Of a DNA stretch of 32,000 bases, positions 13,235-22,165 are shown one piece after another. The position numbers and the translations under genes were made by a program. The stretch's first letter is position 1. The number at the start of each line of letters is the position of its first letter. Source of the DNA: Delftia acidovorans NBRC 14950 (GTDB lineage Bacteria; Pseudomonadota; Gammaproteobacteria; Burkholderiales; Burkholderiaceae_C); assembly GCF_001598795.1 (NCBI RefSeq), contig NZ_BCZP01000016.1:1-32000 (forward strand), read 5' to 3'. The notes below the pieces were generated by a model. It was not told where the DNA came from and did no database searches. It worked only from the letters and a program-made list of their open reading frames with translations.

Positions 13235-14155
13235 CTAATGGAATTTTCCGCAGCACTCCTTATATCGCTTGCCGCTTAAGCACGCACAAGGAGAATTTCG
13301 CGAAATCTTTGGCTGCTGTTTAGTTATTTTTTTCAATTCTTCTTCGAGGGCGAGCAATTCGCTAGCATGAATGATATAACCTAGGTTGTTTGGAATGGAC
13401 CCCACGGAAATCGCTTTTGTGTCGGTTGGTATATCAACTACAATAATTTCTCCCGTAGTAGAGTGCTGAGGGCCGGCGTATAGCGTGCCTAAAAGATATA
13501 TTCTGCTGCCTGCAATGAAGTTTCCTTCTTTGCTAACATAACTCCCGATGTTTGCCAAGAAAACCGGTGAGCCCGATGATCCCGGAAAGCATGCGGCATC
13601 TATTAAGAACTCATTCTTGCCGTTTAATTTCAACCCCGGATGGGTGGCAGTTATTCCCTTTCTGATAATTGGTAGATTATGTAGCTTGTCCCATAGTCCG
13701 TTTGGATATCCAATCATCACAATTTCCTCCATGGGAGGAAGAGAATTCAGAAGCTCCTGGCTCGCCAATAGATCGCTGCTAATTGCTCTGAAATAATATG
13801 ACCGACCATCCTTTGCCCCATTGCTAATAATTGGACCAATCGGAAATGCGGCGAGATCAATATCAGGTGATGGATGATTGACGCAATATTTATCCAAGTT
13901 GTCAAGTATGATAGGCTCGTGCTTTCCAAGGTCTGCGGTCCCGTCTTCTTTTTTCAAAGTAAGATGAAAAGTACCTTGGACTGCGCCTCGAACAACATGC
14001 TTGTTTGTTACCACGCACGGAATTGATTTGCCATCAGATTCGCAAAATAAATAAATATAGCCAGTTCCAGATGATTTTGCACCCCTTATGTTGGTGCATT
14101 CAATGCGCACTGTACTATGGACCAACTGTGAAATCGGGTGAATGAATTCAGACAT
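13235..14155 (-). CDS. Cytoplasmic trypsin-like (chymotrypsin-fold, Trypsin_2-type) serine protease with C-terminal SEC-C zinc-binding motif
   Basis: 306 aa with no signal peptide. Triad motifs are VVTNKHVV (His), PDIDLAAF (Asp) and FPGSSGSPVF (Ser). The C-terminus is SPCACLSGKRYKECCGKFH. The gene sits in a ~1 kb block of much lower GC than the phage. Confidence 0.85.
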   Translation of the reverse strand: MSEFIHPISQLVHSTVRIECTNIRGAKSSGTGYIYLFCESDGKSIPCVVTNKHVVRGAVQGTFHLTLKKEDGTADLGKHEPIILDNLDKYCVNHPSPDIDLAAFPIGPIISNGAKDGRSYYFRAISSDLLASQELLNSLPPMEEIVMIGYPNGLWDKLHNLPIIRKGITATHPGLKLNGKNEFLIDAACFPGSSGSPVFLANIGSYVSKEGNFIAGSRIYLLGTLYAGPQHSTTGEIIVVDIPTDTKAISVGSIPNNLGYIIHASELLALEEELKKITKQQPKISRNSPCACLSGKRYKECCGKFH

Positions 14156-14417: not shown

Positions 14418-14625
14418 GCGGCTCAGCCAGCGGCTGCTCGGGCTCGGGCTTTACTTGTAGAGATGGGGCTACTTCCGGGGGCATGATGACCTGTATGCAC
14501 GACCCTCGCTGTGAATCTATGGGCTCGGGAATAAGCCTCTGACGGTCGCTTCAGTGCTTGCTCAGGTTTTTATGTGTATTCCCAAAAAATCACTTAACCT
14601 ATTGATTTTTATAGATTGAGAGTCT

Positions 14626-14733
14626 GACTTTTAATCCGTTGGTCGCGAGTTCGAATCTCGCAGGACCCACCAAAGAACACAAGGCCCCGTAGCAATACGG
14701 GGCCTTTTTCTTTGCTATCGAAGAAGTAGCAAA
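14626..14733 (+). repeat. Copy 1 of the att-type direct repeat: 3' 47 nt of tRNA-Lys(UUU) (14626-14672) plus the tRNA terminator and ~40 nt beyond
   Basis: GACTTTTAATCCGTTGGTCGCGAGTTCGAATCTCGCAGGACCCACCA covers the anticodon loop CTTTTAA, variable loop, T-arm, 3' acceptor strand and CCA. The 5' half is absent (upstream sequence cannot pair). It is nearly identical to 22058-22165. Confidence 0.85.
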
Positions 14734-14754: not shown

Positions 14755-14788
14755 CGTGTTCCGCAATTCTGGGCGTGTTCCGCAATTC
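14755..14788 (+). promoter_or_regulatory. Two direct 15-bp repeats CGTGTTCCGCAATTC (candidate integrase arm-type sites)
   Basis: Exact copies at 14755-14769 and 14774-14788 (19-bp period), between the att repeat and the integrase 3' end. Confidence 0.35.
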
Positions 14789-15500
14789 ACCGCACGGGCT
14801 TCACCTTCTTGCCCACCTTGTGGCGGATGTACTGCGCTGTCATGCCCTCCGTTGTATGCCCCAGCAGCGCCTGGGCATGGCGTATCCCGCCGTCGTCATC
14901 CACAGTGGTGGCGGCCGTGGAGCGCAGGTCCCGAAACTGGAATTGCGCCTTGGGAATGCCGGCGGCATCCCGAGCGGCGTCGAAGCGGTCGCGGAGCATG
15001 TTCTTTGTCAGCGGCTGACCCGCCTCGCTCACAAGCAGCTGCGCGGTGTCTGCTTTGACCTGGGCTTTGTACGCCTGGATCTTGGCCAGCAGCTCCTGAA
15101 GTGCGCCTGTTACCTCGATGCGCAGCTTGGCTGTCTTGCCCTGGCGGACGTGGAGCATGCCGCCGGCGATGTGGTCGGTGCTCATGCGAAGCACGTCGGC
15201 CGGGCGCTGGCCAGTGAGGAGCGCCAAGTGGACAGCGAACCGCAGGGATACTGCGGCCTTCTCCAACAGCCGAGCCATCAGGTCGTCGCCGACTACGACA
15301 TCCCGCCCATCCTCCCGGAAGCCTCGCATGCCTGCGCAGGGGTTGGAGGCCTTCGTGAGGCCCTGTTCCCGAGCAAAGTTCCACATGTGCGAGAACAGGG
15401 ACTTCTCCCGATTGGCGCGCACCTGGCCGATGGAATCCGGAATCGTCTGAGCCGGTAGTCCAACTTGCCTAAGGGCGCAATGCGGGGGGAGTGACTTGGC
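14787..15500 (-). pseudogene. int: Lambda-type tyrosine integrase, N-terminally truncated (catalytic domain only)
   Basis: LLTGQRPADV (catalytic Arg), FRDLRSTAAT (box with second Arg) and AQALLGHTTEGMTAQYIRH (His...Tyr) parallel lambda Int. The frame is open only from 15500. The first Arg is at about residue 73-99, against about 212 in lambda Int, so the arm-binding and most of the core-binding domains are missing. GC drops sharply at 15500. Confidence 0.8.
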
Positions 15501-15598: not shown

Positions 15599-15622
15599 AA
15601 AAAAAGCCACTGTTGAGTGGCT
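15599..15622 (-). terminator. Rho-independent terminator of small-gene cassette copy 1
   Basis: AGCCACT gttg AGTGGCT, preceded on the + strand by an A-run (a T-run on the - strand). A second hairpin AGCCAGC tctgtg GCTGGCT TTTT lies at 15524-15547. Confidence 0.55.
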
Positions 15623-15650
15623 TTGATCTGGTTAACGAAGGTTTGCCTAG

Positions 15651-15821
15651 CTAAGCATCTCGATTTATTTGCTTTTCTTCTTCATAGATCCTTCGTTCCT
15701 CTCTGGATAAAGGGTCATTCTTTCTTTTGCTATCAAGTGCTTCTATCTGAACTCCTGGAGAAAAGATACTCTTGACGGAATCCCAAAAGACTTCCCATGG
15801 GGTGCGAGGTTGTGAAAGCAT
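15651..15821 (-). CDS. Small protein B (cassette copy 1), unknown function
   Basis: 56 aa, MLSQPRTPWEVFWDSVKSIFSP...IYEEEKQ, with GGAG 6 nt upstream of the ATG. Paralogue at 17354..17617. Confidence 0.65.
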   Translation of the reverse strand: MLSQPRTPWEVFWDSVKSIFSPGVQIEALDSKRKNDPLSREERRIYEEEKQINRDA

Positions 15822-15833
15822 ATTAAACTCCAA

Positions 15834-16046
15834 TTATCTTCCGTTGAGGTAGGGAGGAGGTGTGTCCCGCAGTTCAGCAGAATCCAAATTTATAGTAAAT
15901 TCTGTGTCCCAATCGCTGATTTTTTTCTTACGAGGTGGGTCAGGTGTGCGGAAATAGTCATCGTTAGATACAGCATGACTATCAACATCTGGAAGAGAAT
16001 ATTTATTTTGGCGGCTAAATGAGCCTTTTGTGTCTTTGACTTTCAT
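15834..16046 (-). CDS. Small protein A (cassette copy 1), unknown function
   Basis: 70 aa, MKVKDTKGSFSRQNKYSLPDVDSHAVSNDDYFRTPDPP..., with a GGAGG RBS. Paralogue at 17589..17849. Confidence 0.65.
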   Translation of the reverse strand: MKVKDTKGSFSRQNKYSLPDVDSHAVSNDDYFRTPDPPRKKKISDWDTEFTINLDSAELRDTPPPYLNGR

Positions 16047-16087
16047 GTGGACCTCCGGTCCTGTGTGTTGACCGAAAACGACCAACT

Positions 16088-16156
16088 TTTTTCACACTAC
16101 TCTGATTTCCAGCGGAAAACCGTTTGGGTAACAACAATTACCTATATGTAGAAGCG
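16088..16156 (-). promoter_or_regulatory. Conserved upstream block of cassette copy 1 (putative promoter/operator)
   Basis: About 90% identical to 17890-17957. It lies about 41-110 nt upstream of the A start and contains GGTAA-ttgttg-TTACC dyad symmetry (- strand). Confidence 0.45.
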
Positions 16157-16623
16157 GATCAGGGCAGCGAAGCCCGTCGCGAGAGGGCGCGTCTCGCGCC
16201 CCGCATCCATGCCCTCAGGAAATGTCAGGAACTGCTCGCGGTCTTTGCAAACGATCCATCTCGGGGGCTGTTATGAAGGAAAAAGACCCCTGGCAGTCTC
16301 GCATCCAGGGGCTTGGGGAGCCGCCTAGACTTGGCGCGCACCCCTTTGAGTGGCGTATGGGCCTGTCGTTGCTTAACTGTTGGCCGTTCTTATAAGAGGC
16401 TGCTTCCGGACCTTGCGGTATCTCCAGGCCGCAGGCTGGCTTGGCTGCGCGAGAAGGTACCAAGACAGCGTGCTGCACGTGCTGCGCTCATGCTTCTCGA
16501 TATGTGTACGCGGATGTAATACAGCTTCCAAAGTAACAAAAATAGGCGCCCAATGAAACTGCTCATTGGCAATTTCGTTTCCTCCAGAGGCGTTCCTTAA
16601 TTTGAAATTCGGGAGAAAATGTT

Positions 16624-16863
16624 ATGGATCAAAGAATAAGTGAGCCCGAGCTAGGGGCATTGCACGTTTGGCATGTAAGCATGGTGCTGCTGGCACGCCG
16701 TGGCGAGATGCTTGGAATTTCTGTATATGAAGCGCCTGCGATCGCAAGCCTAGCCGCACGCTGTGAGTCCCCATATCACATGCTAGTGATAGAGGTAGAC
16801 GATCCTTGGGATGTGTCCACCCAAAATTGCATTCGCGCGAGCCTTAGCAGGTTTACGGCATAG
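16624..16863 (+). CDS. Hypothetical protein
   Basis: 79-aa ORF with a GGGAGA RBS. No recognisable motif. Confidence 0.35.
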   Translation: MDQRISEPELGALHVWHVSMVLLARRGEMLGISVYEAPAIASLAARCESPYHMLVIEVDDPWDVSTQNCIRASLSRFTA

Positions 16864-17054
16864 GCTCGTCTGCGTTTAAAACACTCAGACTCTCGCCGTT
16901 TTGTCGTATAAATGACATGTTGCCCAAAAAATCCCTTTTCTGGTGCATGCAATAAACACAATGCTTGTGATAGATGTGAAATGGCTAATGGGCCTAGATG
17001 TTGAATTGCATTTGTCTTACAGCGCTCACCAGTACAGAAGCTCATGCTGTGTTA

Positions 17055-17192
17055 ATGACCACGCCTAGTAAAAAATCCCCTGGCCAAGTGCCCACATCCT
17101 CTTCTCGTAACAGGTTTTCTACGCGCAGGACACTCTACATCGGCATCGCTGTGGTAATTGTTGCTCTTCTGGTTACGCTTGTTCCCTGGTAG
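17055..17192 (+). CDS. Possible small C-terminally anchored membrane protein
   Basis: 45 aa, MTTPSKKSPGQVPTSSSRNRFSTRRTLYIGIAVVIVALLVTLVPW. No strong RBS. Confidence 0.25.
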   Translation: MTTPSKKSPGQVPTSSSRNRFSTRRTLYIGIAVVIVALLVTLVPW

Positions 17193-17313
17193 ATGATCAC
17201 GGCTGCTTTTGCGAGCTGTACGTAACAGCCTTGCGGGGAAGTGCGATCCCAAAAAGGCCTCTATGAAGAGGTTTAGGGGAGAGATTATAAAAACAGAGTG
17301 GTTCAGATGGATG

Positions 17314-17343
17314 AAAAAGAGCCCGCATTCAGCGGGCTTTTCT
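17314..17343. terminator. Bidirectional terminator hairpin (terminates cassette copy 2 on the - strand)
   Basis: AGCCCGC attca GCGGGCT, flanked by an A-run (17314-17318) and a T-run (17338-17341). Confidence 0.6.
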
Positions 17344-17353
17344 ATAATTATCA

Positions 17354-17617
17354 TTATATCGGTCTGTGATATTTATCCTCGCGTCCCTCTATATGTGCAT
17401 TGTGCCTATTGATGTGTTCATGCTGAGAAGATGCTTGGCTGTACGACGGGGCGTTGAGATTGTTTTGAAGCTCTTCTTCGTATATTAATATATCTTCTTT
17501 AGACAAGGGGTAATCTTGCTCAGTGGTTTCTATGGGATCTAGGTGAGCTTTGGGAGAAAATACGGTTTTTATAGAATCCCAGAATTTTTCAAAAGGGGTA
17601 CGAGGGAGTAAGAACAT
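17354..17617 (-). CDS. Small protein B' (cassette copy 2), unknown function
   Basis: 87 aa, MFLLPRTPFEKFWDSIKTVFSP...IYEEELQ plus a His/Gln-rich tail, with GGAGG 5 nt upstream of the ATG. Confidence 0.65.
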   Translation of the reverse strand: MFLLPRTPFEKFWDSIKTVFSPKAHLDPIETTEQDYPLSKEDILIYEEELQNNLNAPSYSQASSQHEHINRHNAHIEGREDKYHRPI

Positions 17618-17849
17618 ATTGGCCTCCAGTGTGCAAGCCATTTAGAGAGGGCGGGCATATCTGTCGTTCGCGCAATACGGCAGATTTAAGAGCGACCAGA
17701 GATGCTGTATTCCACCAGCTGCGCATTATTTTGTGCGGTGGATCAGGAGTGTGGGAGTAATCATCTCTTGATACGGAATGGCTATCAACATCAGGTAGCG
17801 AAAAACTTTCGATGTGGATGGTTGAATCAGATTTTTTTCTTAATTTCAT
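17589..17849 (-). CDS. Small protein A' (cassette copy 2), unknown function
   Basis: 86 aa, MKLRKKSDSTIHIESFSLPDVDSHSVSRDDYSHTPDPP..., with an AGGAG RBS. Its 3' end overlaps the B' start in another frame. Confidence 0.6.
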   Translation of the reverse strand: MKLRKKSDSTIHIESFSLPDVDSHSVSRDDYSHTPDPPHKIMRSWWNTASLVALKSAVLRERQICPPSLNGLHTGGQYVLTPSYPF

Positions 17850-17889
17850 GTGAAACTCCTGTTTGGATCGTTGGTCAAAGATGACTTAC

Positions 17890-17957
17890 TTTTCACACTA
17901 CTCTGATTTGCGCGGTAAAACCGTTTGCGTAACAATAATTACCTATATGTAGTAGCG
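17890..17957 (-). promoter_or_regulatory. Conserved upstream block of cassette copy 2
   Basis: TTTTCACACTACTCTGATTT...AAAACCGTTTG.GTAACAA.AATTACCTATATGTAG is shared with 16088-16156. Confidence 0.45.
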
Positions 17958-18016
17958 TTTCATGGCGTCGAAGGACATTAGAAGAGGGCGCAAGGCACTC
18001 CCTGTGCTTCTGGCTA

Positions 18017-18404
18017 TCAGGAAATCATCAGGAAACTCTCACGGTGTTTACCTGTTCGCGTTTGTCGGAACTTTCGAAGGTCCGAGATCTTCTTGTCCAG
18101 AGCCTTCGCTGCGCCATGAGCCCTGGCCAGCGGCACATCTGCCAACACTCCATCAGCATCCTCTCCGCGCTGAACCCGGGCTTTGAACTCGTTCTCGCTG
18201 ATGTGGATCCGCTTAAGGTTCTCGTGGTGGGCGTTGCTCTGGCCGTTGGCGCCGCGCGTGTTCCCGTAGAGGCGACCTGCCAGAACACGACAAGGCTCGC
18301 CGTCGAGATGGTTCCGTCGTTGGTGCCCAGCACTGCAGCGCGCAGCCAACCTACCTGAGCGGTTCATGGCGCTCAGGATGCGTTCGATAGTGGAATGACT
18401 TCAT
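18017..18404 (-). pseudogene. VIT/CCC1-family protein relic (frameshifted, C-terminal membrane domain missing)
   Basis: ATG at 18404 gives MKSFHYRTHPERHEPLR, then TAG. The adjacent frame continues VGWLRAAVLGTNDGTISTASLVV, the hallmark GWLRAAVLGxNDG motif of VIT-family proteins. Downstream frames are only weakly family-like. Confidence 0.45.
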
Positions 18405-18523: not shown

Positions 18524-19210
18524 TCAGCCTTCGGATAATGCCATGGATTTTTTTATTCGATCGATCGCCGCAACTACGCCCGCCTCAAAATCTCTCCAGT
18601 TTTTTACGCCAGAGTGACGCATTTCATTCATCTTCTCATCTGCGGATTTAATCTCGGTATGCATTCTATTAATGTGCATTTGAATATTTACTTTGGCATC
18701 GGAGCTTGCCAAGTCATATTTCTTCTCAAGTTCTGATACCGCTGCCTTCCCTTTGGATATCTCCTTTCCGGCATTTGCTAAGAACTGCTCGCGAACCATT
18801 GCCTCGTTGGTGTAGGTGAATGCTGGCATGTCCTTCACACTTTGTTTTGTAGCCCCCATGATAATCAGTTTTCCTGATATTTCATTAATTTCACGGATTG
18901 GAATGGCCACATCATGTTGTCCTATTCCGACAAACCCTCCTGCACTCACGATGGCATAAGTCACGTTCTTGTCAGGTGAAATAATAAGATCATCTACTCT
19001 GCCAACTTTTCCCCCAGTGTCGTTAAATATAAACTTTCCTATCAGTGATTTCTTTGCGCTCCATCCCAGGGCAGCGCTGGTGGTTTGGGAGGTCTTAACA
19101 TCCATTGTGGTAGTTGATCCTGCAATTTGTGCCCTTGCTGTTGCAGCAGAAGCTAGGACAGCGGCTAATGCCAGAACGGCAAGAAAATGGTGTGAATGTT
19201 GATTTTTCAT
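18524..19210 (-). CDS. Secreted PRC-barrel domain protein
   Basis: GGAGAG RBS and signal peptide MKNQHSHHFLAVLALAAVLASAATARA|Q. PRC-barrel-like core GKVGRVDDLIISPDKNVTYAIVSAGGFVGIGQHDVAIP, then a helical C-terminal half. Confidence 0.7.
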   Translation of the reverse strand: MKNQHSHHFLAVLALAAVLASAATARAQIAGSTTTMDVKTSQTTSAALGWSAKKSLIGKFIFNDTGGKVGRVDDLIISPDKNVTYAIVSAGGFVGIGQHDVAIPIREINEISGKLIIMGATKQSVKDMPAFTYTNEAMVREQFLANAGKEISKGKAAVSELEKKYDLASSDAKVNIQMHINRMHTEIKSADEKMNEMRHSGVKNWRDFEAGVVAAIDRIKKSMALSEG

Positions 19211-19442
19211 GATTGAGGCTCTCCAAAACGTACCACATCGGGTGTTGGATGTTTGGTGTACGATTTATCGCTTTTATACTTATCAAGTAGCGCTGTCTGT
19301 ACGCGAACCTACAGTGGCTTTTTTAACCCTGACACCCTTGATGCAGAAATTTCTCTGGAAATATTTCAAGTGTGTGCTGGCGCACAGACATGATTTTAGG
19401 TTAGACATATTATTCTGATTGTTGAAGCATCTAGGAATTACC

Positions 19443-20093
19443 ATGAAAACTGACACACAATTACAGCAAGATGTAATGGCAGAGTTGAAGTGGGAGCCTT
19501 CTGTGCACGCATCCCAGATTGGTGTAGAGGTCAAGGATGGCGTTGTCACTTTGGCTGGAGAGGTCAGTAGCTATTTGGAAAAATGGGGGGCTGAAAGGGT
19601 CGTGCAACGTGTGATAGGTGTTAGAGCCTTGGCGATCGACATGACTGTCAAGTTGTCGCAAATGGGAAAGAGGACTGATACCGATATCGCGGCATCCGCG
19701 CGAAACGTGCTTAGCTGGACGAATTCGGTTCCTATCGACACCGTTCAGGTCCTTGTAGAAGATGGTTGGATTACCTTGTCTGGGGAAGTGGTTTGGAACT
19801 ATCAGCGTAGCGATGCTGCCGACAGAGTGCGCCTCTTGCCGGGAGTGCACGGTGTGAGCAACCAAATTTCCATCAAACCCAGGGCTTCAGCCATCGTCGT
19901 AAAGTCAGAAATCGAGGATGCCATCAAGCGTCGTGCGACTTCTGATACGAAAACGATTGTTGTTGATGTCACGGGTGGCGATGTGACGTTAACAGGGACC
20001 GTCCGTAGTTGGATGGAGCGTGATCTCGTAGTTCATTCTGCCTGGGGAAGCCCGGGTGTCCGCCAGGTATTTGACAGGATGACCATCATCTGA
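19443..20093 (+). CDS. BON-domain (OsmY-like) protein
   Basis: AGGAA RBS. The repeated pattern D..L...V...L.W.P.V....I.V.V.DGVVTL.G.V occurs three times (MKTDTQLQQDVMAELKWEPSVHASQIGVEVKDGVVTLAGEV...). Confidence 0.75.
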   Translation: MKTDTQLQQDVMAELKWEPSVHASQIGVEVKDGVVTLAGEVSSYLEKWGAERVVQRVIGVRALAIDMTVKLSQMGKRTDTDIAASARNVLSWTNSVPIDTVQVLVEDGWITLSGEVVWNYQRSDAADRVRLLPGVHGVSNQISIKPRASAIVVKSEIEDAIKRRATSDTKTIVVDVTGGDVTLTGTVRSWMERDLVVHSAWGSPGVRQVFDRMTII

Positions 20094-20197
20094 CAATTTT
20101 GGCGAAGGCCGGGGGCATGAATCGTTGTCGCCAATTCATAGCCATTGTCGTCGTGCCTACCTGAAGCGGATGTCTGATGAATCAGAAAGGATCTGAG

Positions 20198-20400
20198 CCA
20201 TGACCGAAACCTGTCCAAAGTATGCAGAAATAGGGTGAAAGAGGCATGATTTCGAAAACACTAGAAGCGTGGATGATTAAAAATGTGTTTTCTTTTTTGT
20301 CTATTTCAGCGGAACGGATTTTTAATCTGTTGGTCGCGAGTTAGAATATCCAAGGACCCAACAACAAAAACGCGGAAGCCGCGCTATCGTAAAAGTAGCG
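20198..20400 (+). repeat. Copy 3 (degenerate) of the att-type repeat: conserved arm (20198-20265), mutated tRNA-Lys 3' fragment (20315-20363) and a terminator-like tail
   Basis: CGGATTTTTAATCTGTTGGTCGCGAGTTAGAATATCCAAGGACCCAACA aligns to copies 1 and 2 with several substitutions. The upstream 68 bp are about 85% identical to 21924-21991. The tail CTATCGTAAAAGTAGC matches CTATCGAAGAAGTAGC. Confidence 0.6.
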
Positions 20401-21838: not shown

Positions 21839-21923
21839 TCTATGCCCTGCTGGGTTAGACCAAAGTGGAGATTTCTGACACCGGCGATGCGCTGATAGTG
21901 GAGGGTTCAGGCAGGCGGTGTGC

Positions 21924-22165
21924 TATGATCAAAACCTGCCCAAAGTAGGCTGAAATAGGGTGAAAAAGGCATGATTTCGAAAACACCAGATGAGTGGCTA
22001 TCGTTGCAAGTGATTGATACGAAAGGTATTTTCTCTTATGCCTATTTCGATAGATCGGACTTTTAATCCGTTGGTCGCGAGTTCGAATCTCGCAGTACCC
22101 ACCAAAGAGCACAAGGCCCCGTAGCAATACGGGGCCTTTTTTCTTTGCTATCGAAGAAGTAGCAA
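21924..22165 (+). repeat. Copy 2 of the att-type repeat: conserved arm (21924-21991), tRNA-Lys 3' fragment (22056-22104), and terminator plus tail (to 22165)
   Basis: CGGACTTTTAATCCGTTGGTCGCGAGTTCGAATCTCGCAGTACCCACCA. It differs from copy 1 by 1 nt in the acceptor strand (GTACCC vs GGACCC). The downstream hairpin AAGGCCCCGtagcaataCGGGGCCTTTTTT and CTATCGAAGAAGTAGCAA are shared with copy 1. Confidence 0.85.

Follow-up and report, generated by a model that had tools for sequence, protein, structure and literature searches.

Morons of bacteriophages are self-standing units of promoter, gene and terminator that lie between conserved genes of a prophage. Two cassettes that probably belong to this type, each made of two small genes (A and B in copy 1, A' and B' in copy 2), were found in a stretch of 32,000 nucleotides of Delftia acidovorans NBRC 14950 (contig NZ_BCZP01000016.1 of assembly GCF_001598795.1, positions 1 to 32,000 of the forward strand), hereafter called the window. 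An earlier note, made from the letters of this DNA, had compared the cassettes with toxin-antitoxin or small stress modules and had pointed to a conserved block upstream of each. The cassettes were compared here with morons, with type II toxin-antitoxin operons, with tomB-hha and the hns-linked modulators of plasmids and phages, and with leaders of the CsrA/RsmA type, the binding motif of these proteins being a GGA in a hairpin loop. The explanation retained, with a probability of roughly 60%, is that each copy represents a moron-type accessory operon that is autonomous and belongs to temperate phages or islands of Comamonadaceae.

The likeness to a moron concerns the organisation of the cassette as well as its surroundings. 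The A/B cassette is a discrete unit, ending in a terminator and preceded by a conserved block of its own. It lies between two genes (hns and a gene of 84 amino acids) that are direct neighbours in a related prophage. The base composition of the cassette is unlike that of the flanks, and it is present in some relatives and absent from others. Three of the four features that define a moron were found, namely insertion between neighbours, a terminator and a distinct composition, while the promoter is a prediction. In contrast to a moron, the cassette has two genes instead of one, has undergone tandem duplication along with a piece of the hns gene that precedes it, and also occurs outside recognisable prophages.

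Both cassettes lie on the minus strand, A/B at 15651-16046 and A'/B' at 17354-17849, as seen from the list of open reading frames (ORFs) and their translations and in agreement with the ORFs and sizes given in the earlier note (Table 1). In the public protein collection, the four proteins occur solely as "hypothetical proteins" of Delftia. With a profile of A and B, a full HMMER scan over 1.84 billion representative proteins retrieved nine, five A-like and four B-like. The contigs of these nine and one viral contig gave about 11 cassettes in Comamonadaceae-type DNA, which are designated below by L numbers. Gene B comes directly after A in L011, L012, L014, L018 (where two cassettes stand in tandem), L019 and L020/21, and a DNA motif scan of IMG/VR added the viral contig L041 with a more distant A-B cassette. 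One extra orphan A without B was detected in L013-L017 (L013a), while no orphan B was seen. Co-occurrence of the two genes, which had been suggested as a check, held for all other complete cassettes that were retrieved. The protein alignment also contained the conserved peptide cores that the earlier note had given. The placement in Comamonadaceae follows from the flanking genes: the names given to hns homologues are those of Delftia, Comamonas and Rhodoferax, and the neighbour in L013 is nearest to Comamonas and Diaphorobacter. Contig L041 (2397-2948, 9488-10066) additionally harbours genes for a universal stress protein (Usp) and a RES-domain toxin as well as a fragment of a terminase gene, and is another decayed prophage with stress-type cargo.

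Other searches did not enlarge the family, which is very small and confined to a few representatives. A fused A-B query in a word-indexed protein search gave no match, and the cassette of the window itself was not returned either, possibly owing to masking of the region. Scans of representative genomes with B peptide patterns and with a leader DNA pattern gave chance matches only, the cassette being absent or the region masked there. As these two scans and the word-indexed search missed even the cassette of the window, though many Delftia assemblies carry it, absence from them should not be taken for biological absence. A scan of metagenome DNA (JGI) yielded Delftia copies and chance matches only.

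The limits of the cassette unit are fixed: the conserved block, a leader of ~45 nt, A, B and a terminator. The GC (guanine plus cytosine) content of the cassettes is 0.42-0.52 versus 0.51-0.68 in their flanks (window, L012, L013/14, L018, L019 and L041). A GGAG or GGAGG Shine-Dalgarno sequence was read 5-7 nt ahead of the ATG in all four genes, and a hairpin scan located a terminator at the end of each cassette, both of which had been noticed before. A near-identical copy of the cassette-1 terminator hairpin follows B in L018b, and similar ones occur in L019 and L020. In copy 1, A and B are in one frame with one TAA between them; in copy 2, A' and B' overlap by 29 nt in different frames. Both arrangements had been recognised in the earlier note. 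The in-frame TAA has no particular meaning, nor does the overlap in copy 2 point to recoding, as the comparison of cassettes across loci revealed a frame relation of 0, 1 or 2 depending on the cassette. In most cassettes, B starts with its own Shine-Dalgarno sequence and ATG 12-30 nt past the stop of A. Programmed read-through of the stop in copy 1 and +1 frameshifting at CCC UUU UGA in copy 2 were considered as routes to B and B', respectively, and rejected because the frame relation varies and every B has a Shine-Dalgarno sequence and an ATG. One D. acidovorans strain encodes a fusion of A' and B' of 164 amino acids (P0048, WP_454723703.1), which matches a one-T deletion in the TTTT run at the A' stop (17589-17617, CCC TTT TGA). 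A +1 slip on UUU-UGA would yield the same sequence at this junction; the fusion was judged to reflect a one-base deletion mutation and not recoding.

The window is 100% identical to the Delftia chromosome CP066006.1 (GCA_016127415.1). Its region from ~13 to 22 kb has a GC content of 43-56%, versus ~62% for the genome. An integrative island had been proposed at this place, and direct repeats of a tRNA half were indeed found, as was a truncated integrase that lies downstream of cassette 1, where the island ends (Table 1). Two of the tRNA-half copies are closely preceded by 91-bp repeats (20182-20272 and 21907-21997), which are 82% identical to each other. ARAGORN found no complete tRNA in the window, and the tRNA match of Rfam at 22040-22101 reached only 29.5 bits. 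Prophage tail and lysis genes are located to the left of the attachment-type (att) repeat region, and genes for PRC-barrel and BON-domain proteins lie beyond cassette 2. The region is a series of decayed integrative elements arrayed in tandem at a single att site, and the cassettes lie in the low-GC remnant of a prophage or island integrated at tRNA-Lys.

A more precise location is given by the gene upstream of the cassettes. An hns gene or its remnant is found immediately upstream of the cassette in the window (twice), in L018 (twice) and in L019. L018 holds an intact gene of the H-NS family (94 amino acids, PF00816) ending in NWILGKDRSAFLIS and a stop, and similar remnants are present in L018b and L019. 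The weaker similarity that the earlier note had seen further upstream of the block is real, but it is not regulatory: tblastn identified it as the 3' end of an H-NS-family gene remnant. Homologues of hns with 60-80% identity are found in the early region of the related Comamonadaceae prophages L036 (GCA_041984925.1) and L039 (Delftia sp. DLF01), where hns lies between recT/yqaJ-type genes and alpA-int; the early region of prophage L038 has the same layout. In these three prophages, hns is followed by different cargo, without A/B. In L038 it is directly followed, on the opposite strand, by the gene of 84 amino acids mentioned above, a homologue of which is present in the window (Table 1), where it bounds the slot of cassette 2 on the far side. 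The order in the window (hns remnant, A'B', homologue of the 84-amino-acid gene) fits an insertion of the cassette into a slot downstream of hns. L019 displays the order hns remnant, A, B, alpA, int, which is the same as that of cassette 1 with the truncated integrase. In related Comamonas-like contigs, the region that follows the orthologous transglutaminase gene lacks A/B genes. The slot downstream of the phage-borne hns is a hot-spot for cargo genes, a prophage context that had been overlooked before.

The stop codon of hns is followed by an element composed of GCATGAGCAC, a hairpin and GTCCTGA (L036 8298-8400, L018 300-360, L019 ~840-900 and window 16185-16225), which is shared by prophages whether or not they carry A/B. 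This element, probably the terminator of hns, delimits the cargo slot on its upstream side. L011 shows the same post-hns hairpin sequence as L019.

The linkage with hns also raises the question whether A and B could be co-factors or antagonists of H-NS-family silencers, analogous to Hha/YdgT or to phage anti-H-NS proteins, and acquired together with the phage hns gene. The position directly downstream of hns or its remnant, the hairpin shared by L011 and L019, the inclusion of the hns 3' end in the duplicated unit and the AT-rich composition of the cassettes would all suit such a function. As in tomB-hha and the hns-linked modulators of plasmids and phages, paired small proteins (~70 amino acids) are encoded, here in linkage to a horizontally carried gene of the hns family. 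However, the hns copies decay while A/B persist, and the cassettes of L012, L013 and L041 have no adjacent hns, so that the linkage is not universal. Intact prophages with the same hns hold other cargo, and the linkage may therefore reflect a shared insertion hot-spot. No similarity to the Hha-family models of Pfam was found, nor any sequence or predicted structural similarity to the known modulators, from which gene order and context differ as well. A role as H-NS modulators is thus considered quite improbable, and to name nucleoid-silencing proteins as the target of A/B on account of the recurrent hns linkage is speculative.

For the upstream block, ~125 nt upstream of A were aligned from all cassettes. 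The block is present in 10 of the 11 cassettes, the orphan A alone lacking it, and a 44-nt pattern of the block matches only its two sites in the window, with 0 matches expected in shuffles. Across the cassettes it is composed of CTACATAT, a GTAA-N6-TTAC dyad, AACGGTTTT, a variable patch of 8 nt, and AAATC(A/G)GAGTA(N)TGTGAA with the -10-like TAnTGT. The dyad reported as GGTAA-N6-TTACC is exact in copy 1, but copy 2 ends in TTACG; in L019 the dyad reads TGTAA-N6-TTACA. Averaged over the pairs among eight cassettes, identity reaches 0.69 in the block and 0.68 in the leader, versus 0.57 in each coding sequence. This distribution and the identity of the block agree with the regulatory constraint that had been proposed for it. 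Conservation starts sharply ~63 nt before the predicted transcription start, and the sequences further upstream differ among loci. TAnTGT stands at a constant distance from a covarying 5' hairpin (see below), and the cassette is found behind unrelated upstream genes. The block is best read as promoter/operator DNA. The block was compared by eye with the consensus sequences of sigma-54, sigma-E/AlgU, sigma-32, sigma-28 and sigma-S promoters, and none fits in both sequence and spacing. No promoter motif shared by the block and the neighbouring PRC-barrel and BON genes was found.

The block could alternatively be a cis-acting RNA, such as a riboswitch or leader element, with transcription starting further upstream. 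RNAalifold draws the hairpins GGUAA/UUACC and GGUUU/AAAUC in the block, and the lack of a canonical -35 element would be in line with a more distant promoter. These stems are nevertheless near-invariant and devoid of covariation, the observed values being reached by 95-129 of 500 shuffles, and the folds are not unusually stable (z-scores of -0.8 and -1.1). A scan of the window against Rfam at the gathering threshold returned only the weak tRNA fragment at 22040-22101 and no known RNA family for the block or the leader. The sharp upstream limit of conservation, with differing sequences beyond, also argues against an RNA reaching further upstream. A structured RNA was rejected for the block given the absent covariation and the ordinary folding stability, and this explanation is regarded as very unlikely.

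The situation is different for the leader between the block and gene A. Two hairpins in the leader, H1 and H2, had been missed in the earlier note. In H1, compensatory double changes were found at 4 of the 8 pairs and 94% of the cells are paired, while slid controls collapse. For H1 and H2 together, 92% are paired with double changes at six pairs; the covariation score was reached by 0 of 500 shuffles, and slid controls are 18-48% paired. Seven of the 11 cassettes share one and the same H2 sequence, and in two others the hairpin is rebuilt with another sequence (AAAC-AGGA-GUUU in copy 2, AGUC-GGAG-GACU in L013b); in L020/21 it reads GGGCC-GGA-GGUCC. The Shine-Dalgarno sequence of A lies in such a GGA-loop hairpin in 9 of the 11 cassettes. 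Most cassettes have an AGGA upstream as well. H2 was not evident in L041, the most distant member, or in the orphan A L013a. The loops of H1 (16075-16078 and 17875-17878 in the window) are pyrimidine-rich in most cassettes (UUUU, UCUU, UUCU, UCCU). H1 and H2 behave as RNA, forming conserved hairpins of the leader. In the minimum-energy fold of window copy 1 and of L013b (1776-1834), H1 and H2 do not form, and the 3' arm of H1 is paired with the Shine-Dalgarno region. The leader may therefore have another conformer of the anti-Shine-Dalgarno kind, but no consistent register was found for this pairing. Loop-loop pairing between the pyrimidine loop of H1 and the GGA of H2 was rejected, also for want of a consistent register.

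With the Shine-Dalgarno sequence of A in a hairpin with a GGA loop, the leader resembles CsrA/RsmA leaders, hairpins that sequester the Shine-Dalgarno sequence, and RNA thermometers. It differs from CsrA/RsmA leaders in having only one clear hairpin site. A literature search on CsrA/Rsm and the leader returned nothing relevant.

The two copies of the window were further compared at the level of codons. The differences are mainly at third codon positions, with proportions of nonsynonymous (pN) and synonymous (pS) differences of 0.33 and 0.67 for A versus A', and of 0.30 and 0.81 for B versus B'. Identity between copy 1 and copy 2 amounts to 63/70 (90%) in the block, 62% in the 5' leader, 63% further upstream, 71% in the coding sequence of A and 62% in that of B. 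The cassettes are therefore diverged paralogues whose proteins have changed more than the upstream block, as had been described. Constraint on the block follows from the fact that synonymous sites are saturated while this non-coding sequence remains 90% identical. The duplication looks old, as suggested by the saturated synonymous sites of the paralogues and by the recurrence of window-type and diverged versions in L018. Within Delftia, pN/pS of copy 1 is 0.36 for A and 0.26 for B, in comparison to 0.02 for the PRC-barrel gene and 0.20 for the BON gene, two neighbours on which purifying selection is strong. Gene A is conserved across many Delftia assemblies, and most of the assemblies sampled keep all four ORFs intact. 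Taken together, the four ORFs are genuinely coding and under purifying selection.

As the earlier note had found, neither protein could be assigned to a known family. Searches with A, B, A' and B' gave no match at E <= 1 in Pfam and NCBIfam. With the pair of L012 added, there was no match at E <= 1 in PADLOC and one insignificant match in PHROGs (E = 0.47). Profile searches of the PDB revealed nothing significant. Structures were predicted with AlphaFold2 on fused A+B and A'+B' from shallow alignments, so that negative results from these models are weak; the predicted local distance difference test score (pLDDT) was 58-60 and the predicted template modelling score (pTM) 0.20 and 0.18. Protein A was modelled mostly as coil with one or two helices around the invariant LPDVDSHxVxxDDYxxTPDxP, and most members display an amphipathic helix, W..ASL.ALKAAVL. 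In B, an amphipathic helix was predicted near the N-terminus (PWE.F.D.VKSIF) and another helix at the C-terminus, where it ends in the conserved INRDA. A and B are too small and too disordered to be enzymes; most likely they work as a pair that binds a target of the host or the phage, a binding or regulatory pair being the simplest reading.

A toxin-antitoxin or addiction module was the resemblance favoured in the earlier note. In such a module, A would be a labile antitoxin repressing the dyad promoter and B a small toxin, and the harm caused by its loss would keep it in decayed DNA. Like type II systems, A/B form a compact operon of two small genes on mobile DNA, closely spaced or overlapping, with palindromes in the promoter region. 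Both diverged paralogues have been kept, an orphan first gene exists (L013a) while an orphan B has never been seen, variants with decay or fusion on the B side occur (P0049, P0048 and B of L018a), and A/B persist while the neighbouring hns and int decay. Against this, A and B have no similarity in Pfam, NCBIfam, PADLOC, PHROGs or the PDB, and hence no homology to any family of this kind. The AlphaFold2 models show neither a ribbon-helix-helix, helix-turn-helix or AbrB-like DNA-binding fold in A nor a folded toxin domain in B. The models also give no confident interface between the two proteins. Protein B is hydrophilic, unlike a membrane-peptide toxin, and the family is extremely rare, unlike typical toxin-antitoxin families. 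As none of the features tested (family membership, DNA-binding antitoxin fold, predicted complex) favours it, a toxin-antitoxin module is considered unlikely.

Several observations weigh against the explanation of the cassettes as moron-type operons of phages or islands. No sigma-70 -35 element could be recognised in the block and a consensus promoter scan of the window made no call there, so that the sigma factor and the start site given for the A/B promoter are guesses. In the fused-pair models of AlphaFold2, A and B do not pack against each other with confidence and neither adopts a confident fold. The cassette was not detected in deposited phages and plasmids by tblastn or in plasmids by blastn, and the viral collections contributed a single IMG/VR contig, L041. 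In L012 and L013, the cassettes lie in apparently chromosomal, non-phage contexts without hns. Finally, copy 2 looks partly relaxed within Delftia: its pN/pS is 0.45-0.68 (~0.68 for B'), one variant of B' has a premature stop, A' of L007 has a 1-base gap and hence a frameshift, and the A'-B' fusion belongs to the same series.

The state of copy 2, as well as the heavy decay of the surrounding element, could indicate that the ORFs are decaying leftovers without present function and that the 90% identity of the block stems from recent gene conversion. A conversion of 70 bp cannot account, however, for the same block in unrelated contigs. The saturation of synonymous sites in conserved proteins, the four intact ORFs of most sampled Delftia assemblies and the maintenance of H1 by compensatory changes are also difficult to reconcile with it. 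Pure decay is unlikely for copy 1 and more plausible for copy 2; as a general explanation, it is regarded as very unlikely.

The accessory operon of the moron type, which remains the preferred explanation, could work as follows. The cassette would be carried in the integrase-proximal early region, in the variable slot just downstream of the phage gene of the H-NS family. The window would contain two anciently duplicated units of hns, A and B, left in a decayed element at tRNA-Lys, of which the hns parts have decayed while the block, A and B persist. Transcription may start ~7 nt past the -10-like TAnTGT, 2-4 nt before H1, and a regulator may bind the GTAA-N6-TTAC dyad and/or the GGTTT...AAATC repeat, which overlaps the core promoter. 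The mRNA would open with H1 as a protective stem-loop, the 5' end of a transcript being the usual location of stabilising stem-loops. Translation of A would be gated by H2, in which its Shine-Dalgarno sequence is enclosed, until the hairpin is opened by melting or bound by a protein of the CsrA/Rsm type, whereas B would be translated from its own Shine-Dalgarno sequence. As to function, it is conceivable, but doubtful, that A and B form an undescribed two-component system of Comamonadaceae mobile elements that acts on the cell, either as a new toxin-antitoxin or addiction pair or as new modulators of H-NS-type silencers, doubly gated by the operator-bearing promoter and the GGA-loop Shine-Dalgarno hairpin.

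Other genes of the low-GC island were also inspected. A divergent pair consists of a PRC-barrel gene (18524-19210, minus strand), the product of which has by eye an apparent N-terminal signal peptide, and a BON-domain gene (19419-20093, plus strand). In the intergenic region of this pair, 14 nt (19311-19324, plus strand) form a perfect complement to the distal half of the terminator of cassette 1 at 15600-15613 (ACAGTGGCTTTTTT); this stretch may be a remnant of the end of a further cassette, or the match may be due to chance. A low-GC gene for a Trypsin_2-family serine protease (13235-14155, minus strand) lies between the lysis genes and the att repeat. The Cys-rich tail of the protease, SPCACLSGKRYKECCGK, resembles the SEC-C metal-binding motif, and the gene looks like another moron.

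Table 1. Coordinates of the cassette features, upstream remnants and integration-site features in the window
Feature	Position	Strand	Description
Block, copy 1	16088-16156	minus	GGTAA-N6-TTACC dyad at 16142-16127; AACGGTTTT at 16124-16116; AAATCAGAG; -10-like TAGTGT at 16099-16094
H1, copy 1	16067-16086	minus	Stem of 8 bp with pyrimidine-rich loop of 4 nt; at or near the predicted mRNA 5' end
H2, copy 1	16049-16061	minus	GGACC-GGA-GGUCC; encloses the Shine-Dalgarno sequence of A, the loop being GGA; separated from the ATG by 2 nt
Gene A	15834-16046	minus	70 amino acids; basic N-terminus; motif LPDVDSHxVxxDDYxxTPDxP; predicted mostly disordered
Gene B	15651-15821	minus	56 amino acids; predicted N-terminal amphipathic helix PWEVFWDSVKSIF and C-terminal helix; conserved C-terminus INRDA
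Intrinsic terminator, cassette 1	15603-15624	minus	Hairpin AAAGCCACTCAACAGTGGCTTT, then T-run
Block, copy 2	17890-17957	minus	Dyad GGTAA-N6-TTACG at 17943-17928; -10-like TAGTGT at 17900-17895
Leader, copy 2	17853-17889	minus	H1 at 17889-17870 (GUCA-UCUU-UGAC core); H2 at 17864-17853 (AAAC-AGGA-GUUU)
Gene A'	17589-17849	minus	86 amino acids; paralogue of A; predicted amphipathic helix at residues 43-63
Gene B'	17354-17617	minus	87 amino acids; paralogue of B; extended C-terminus
Intrinsic terminator, cassette 2	17320-17338	minus	Terminator-like hairpin with T-run
hns remnant, copy 1	16226-16297	minus	Contains PPRWIVCKDREQFL; tblastn with the intact H-NS of L018 (PF00816), E = 0.004
hns remnant, copy 2	18026-18052	minus	GKHRESFLMIS and stop; E = 22, not significant alone, backed by its position and by the ends in FLIS and stop in L018 and L038
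ORF	16624-16863	plus	79 amino acids; 57.5% identity over 80 amino acids (E = 4e-27) to the L038 gene of 84 amino acids; called as a gene in Logan assemblies
Truncated tyrosine integrase	14787-15422	minus	C-terminal 211 amino acids; PF00589
att-type direct repeat	14619-14732	plus	115 bp; 3' half of tRNA-Lys(UUU) and terminator; partner at 22052-22165, 96% identical
Degenerate third copy of att repeat	20314-20400

These data represent a solid gain in annotation rather than a surprise, and the family is tiny. They define two orphan families of small proteins, without a model in Pfam or NCBIfam, that are paired with a well-delimited regulatory region. The cassette offers a compact and testable model for the control of prophage cargo genes in Comamonadaceae. 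If A and B were indeed an addiction module or modulators of H-NS, this would explain why they have outlived the decay of the surrounding prophage.

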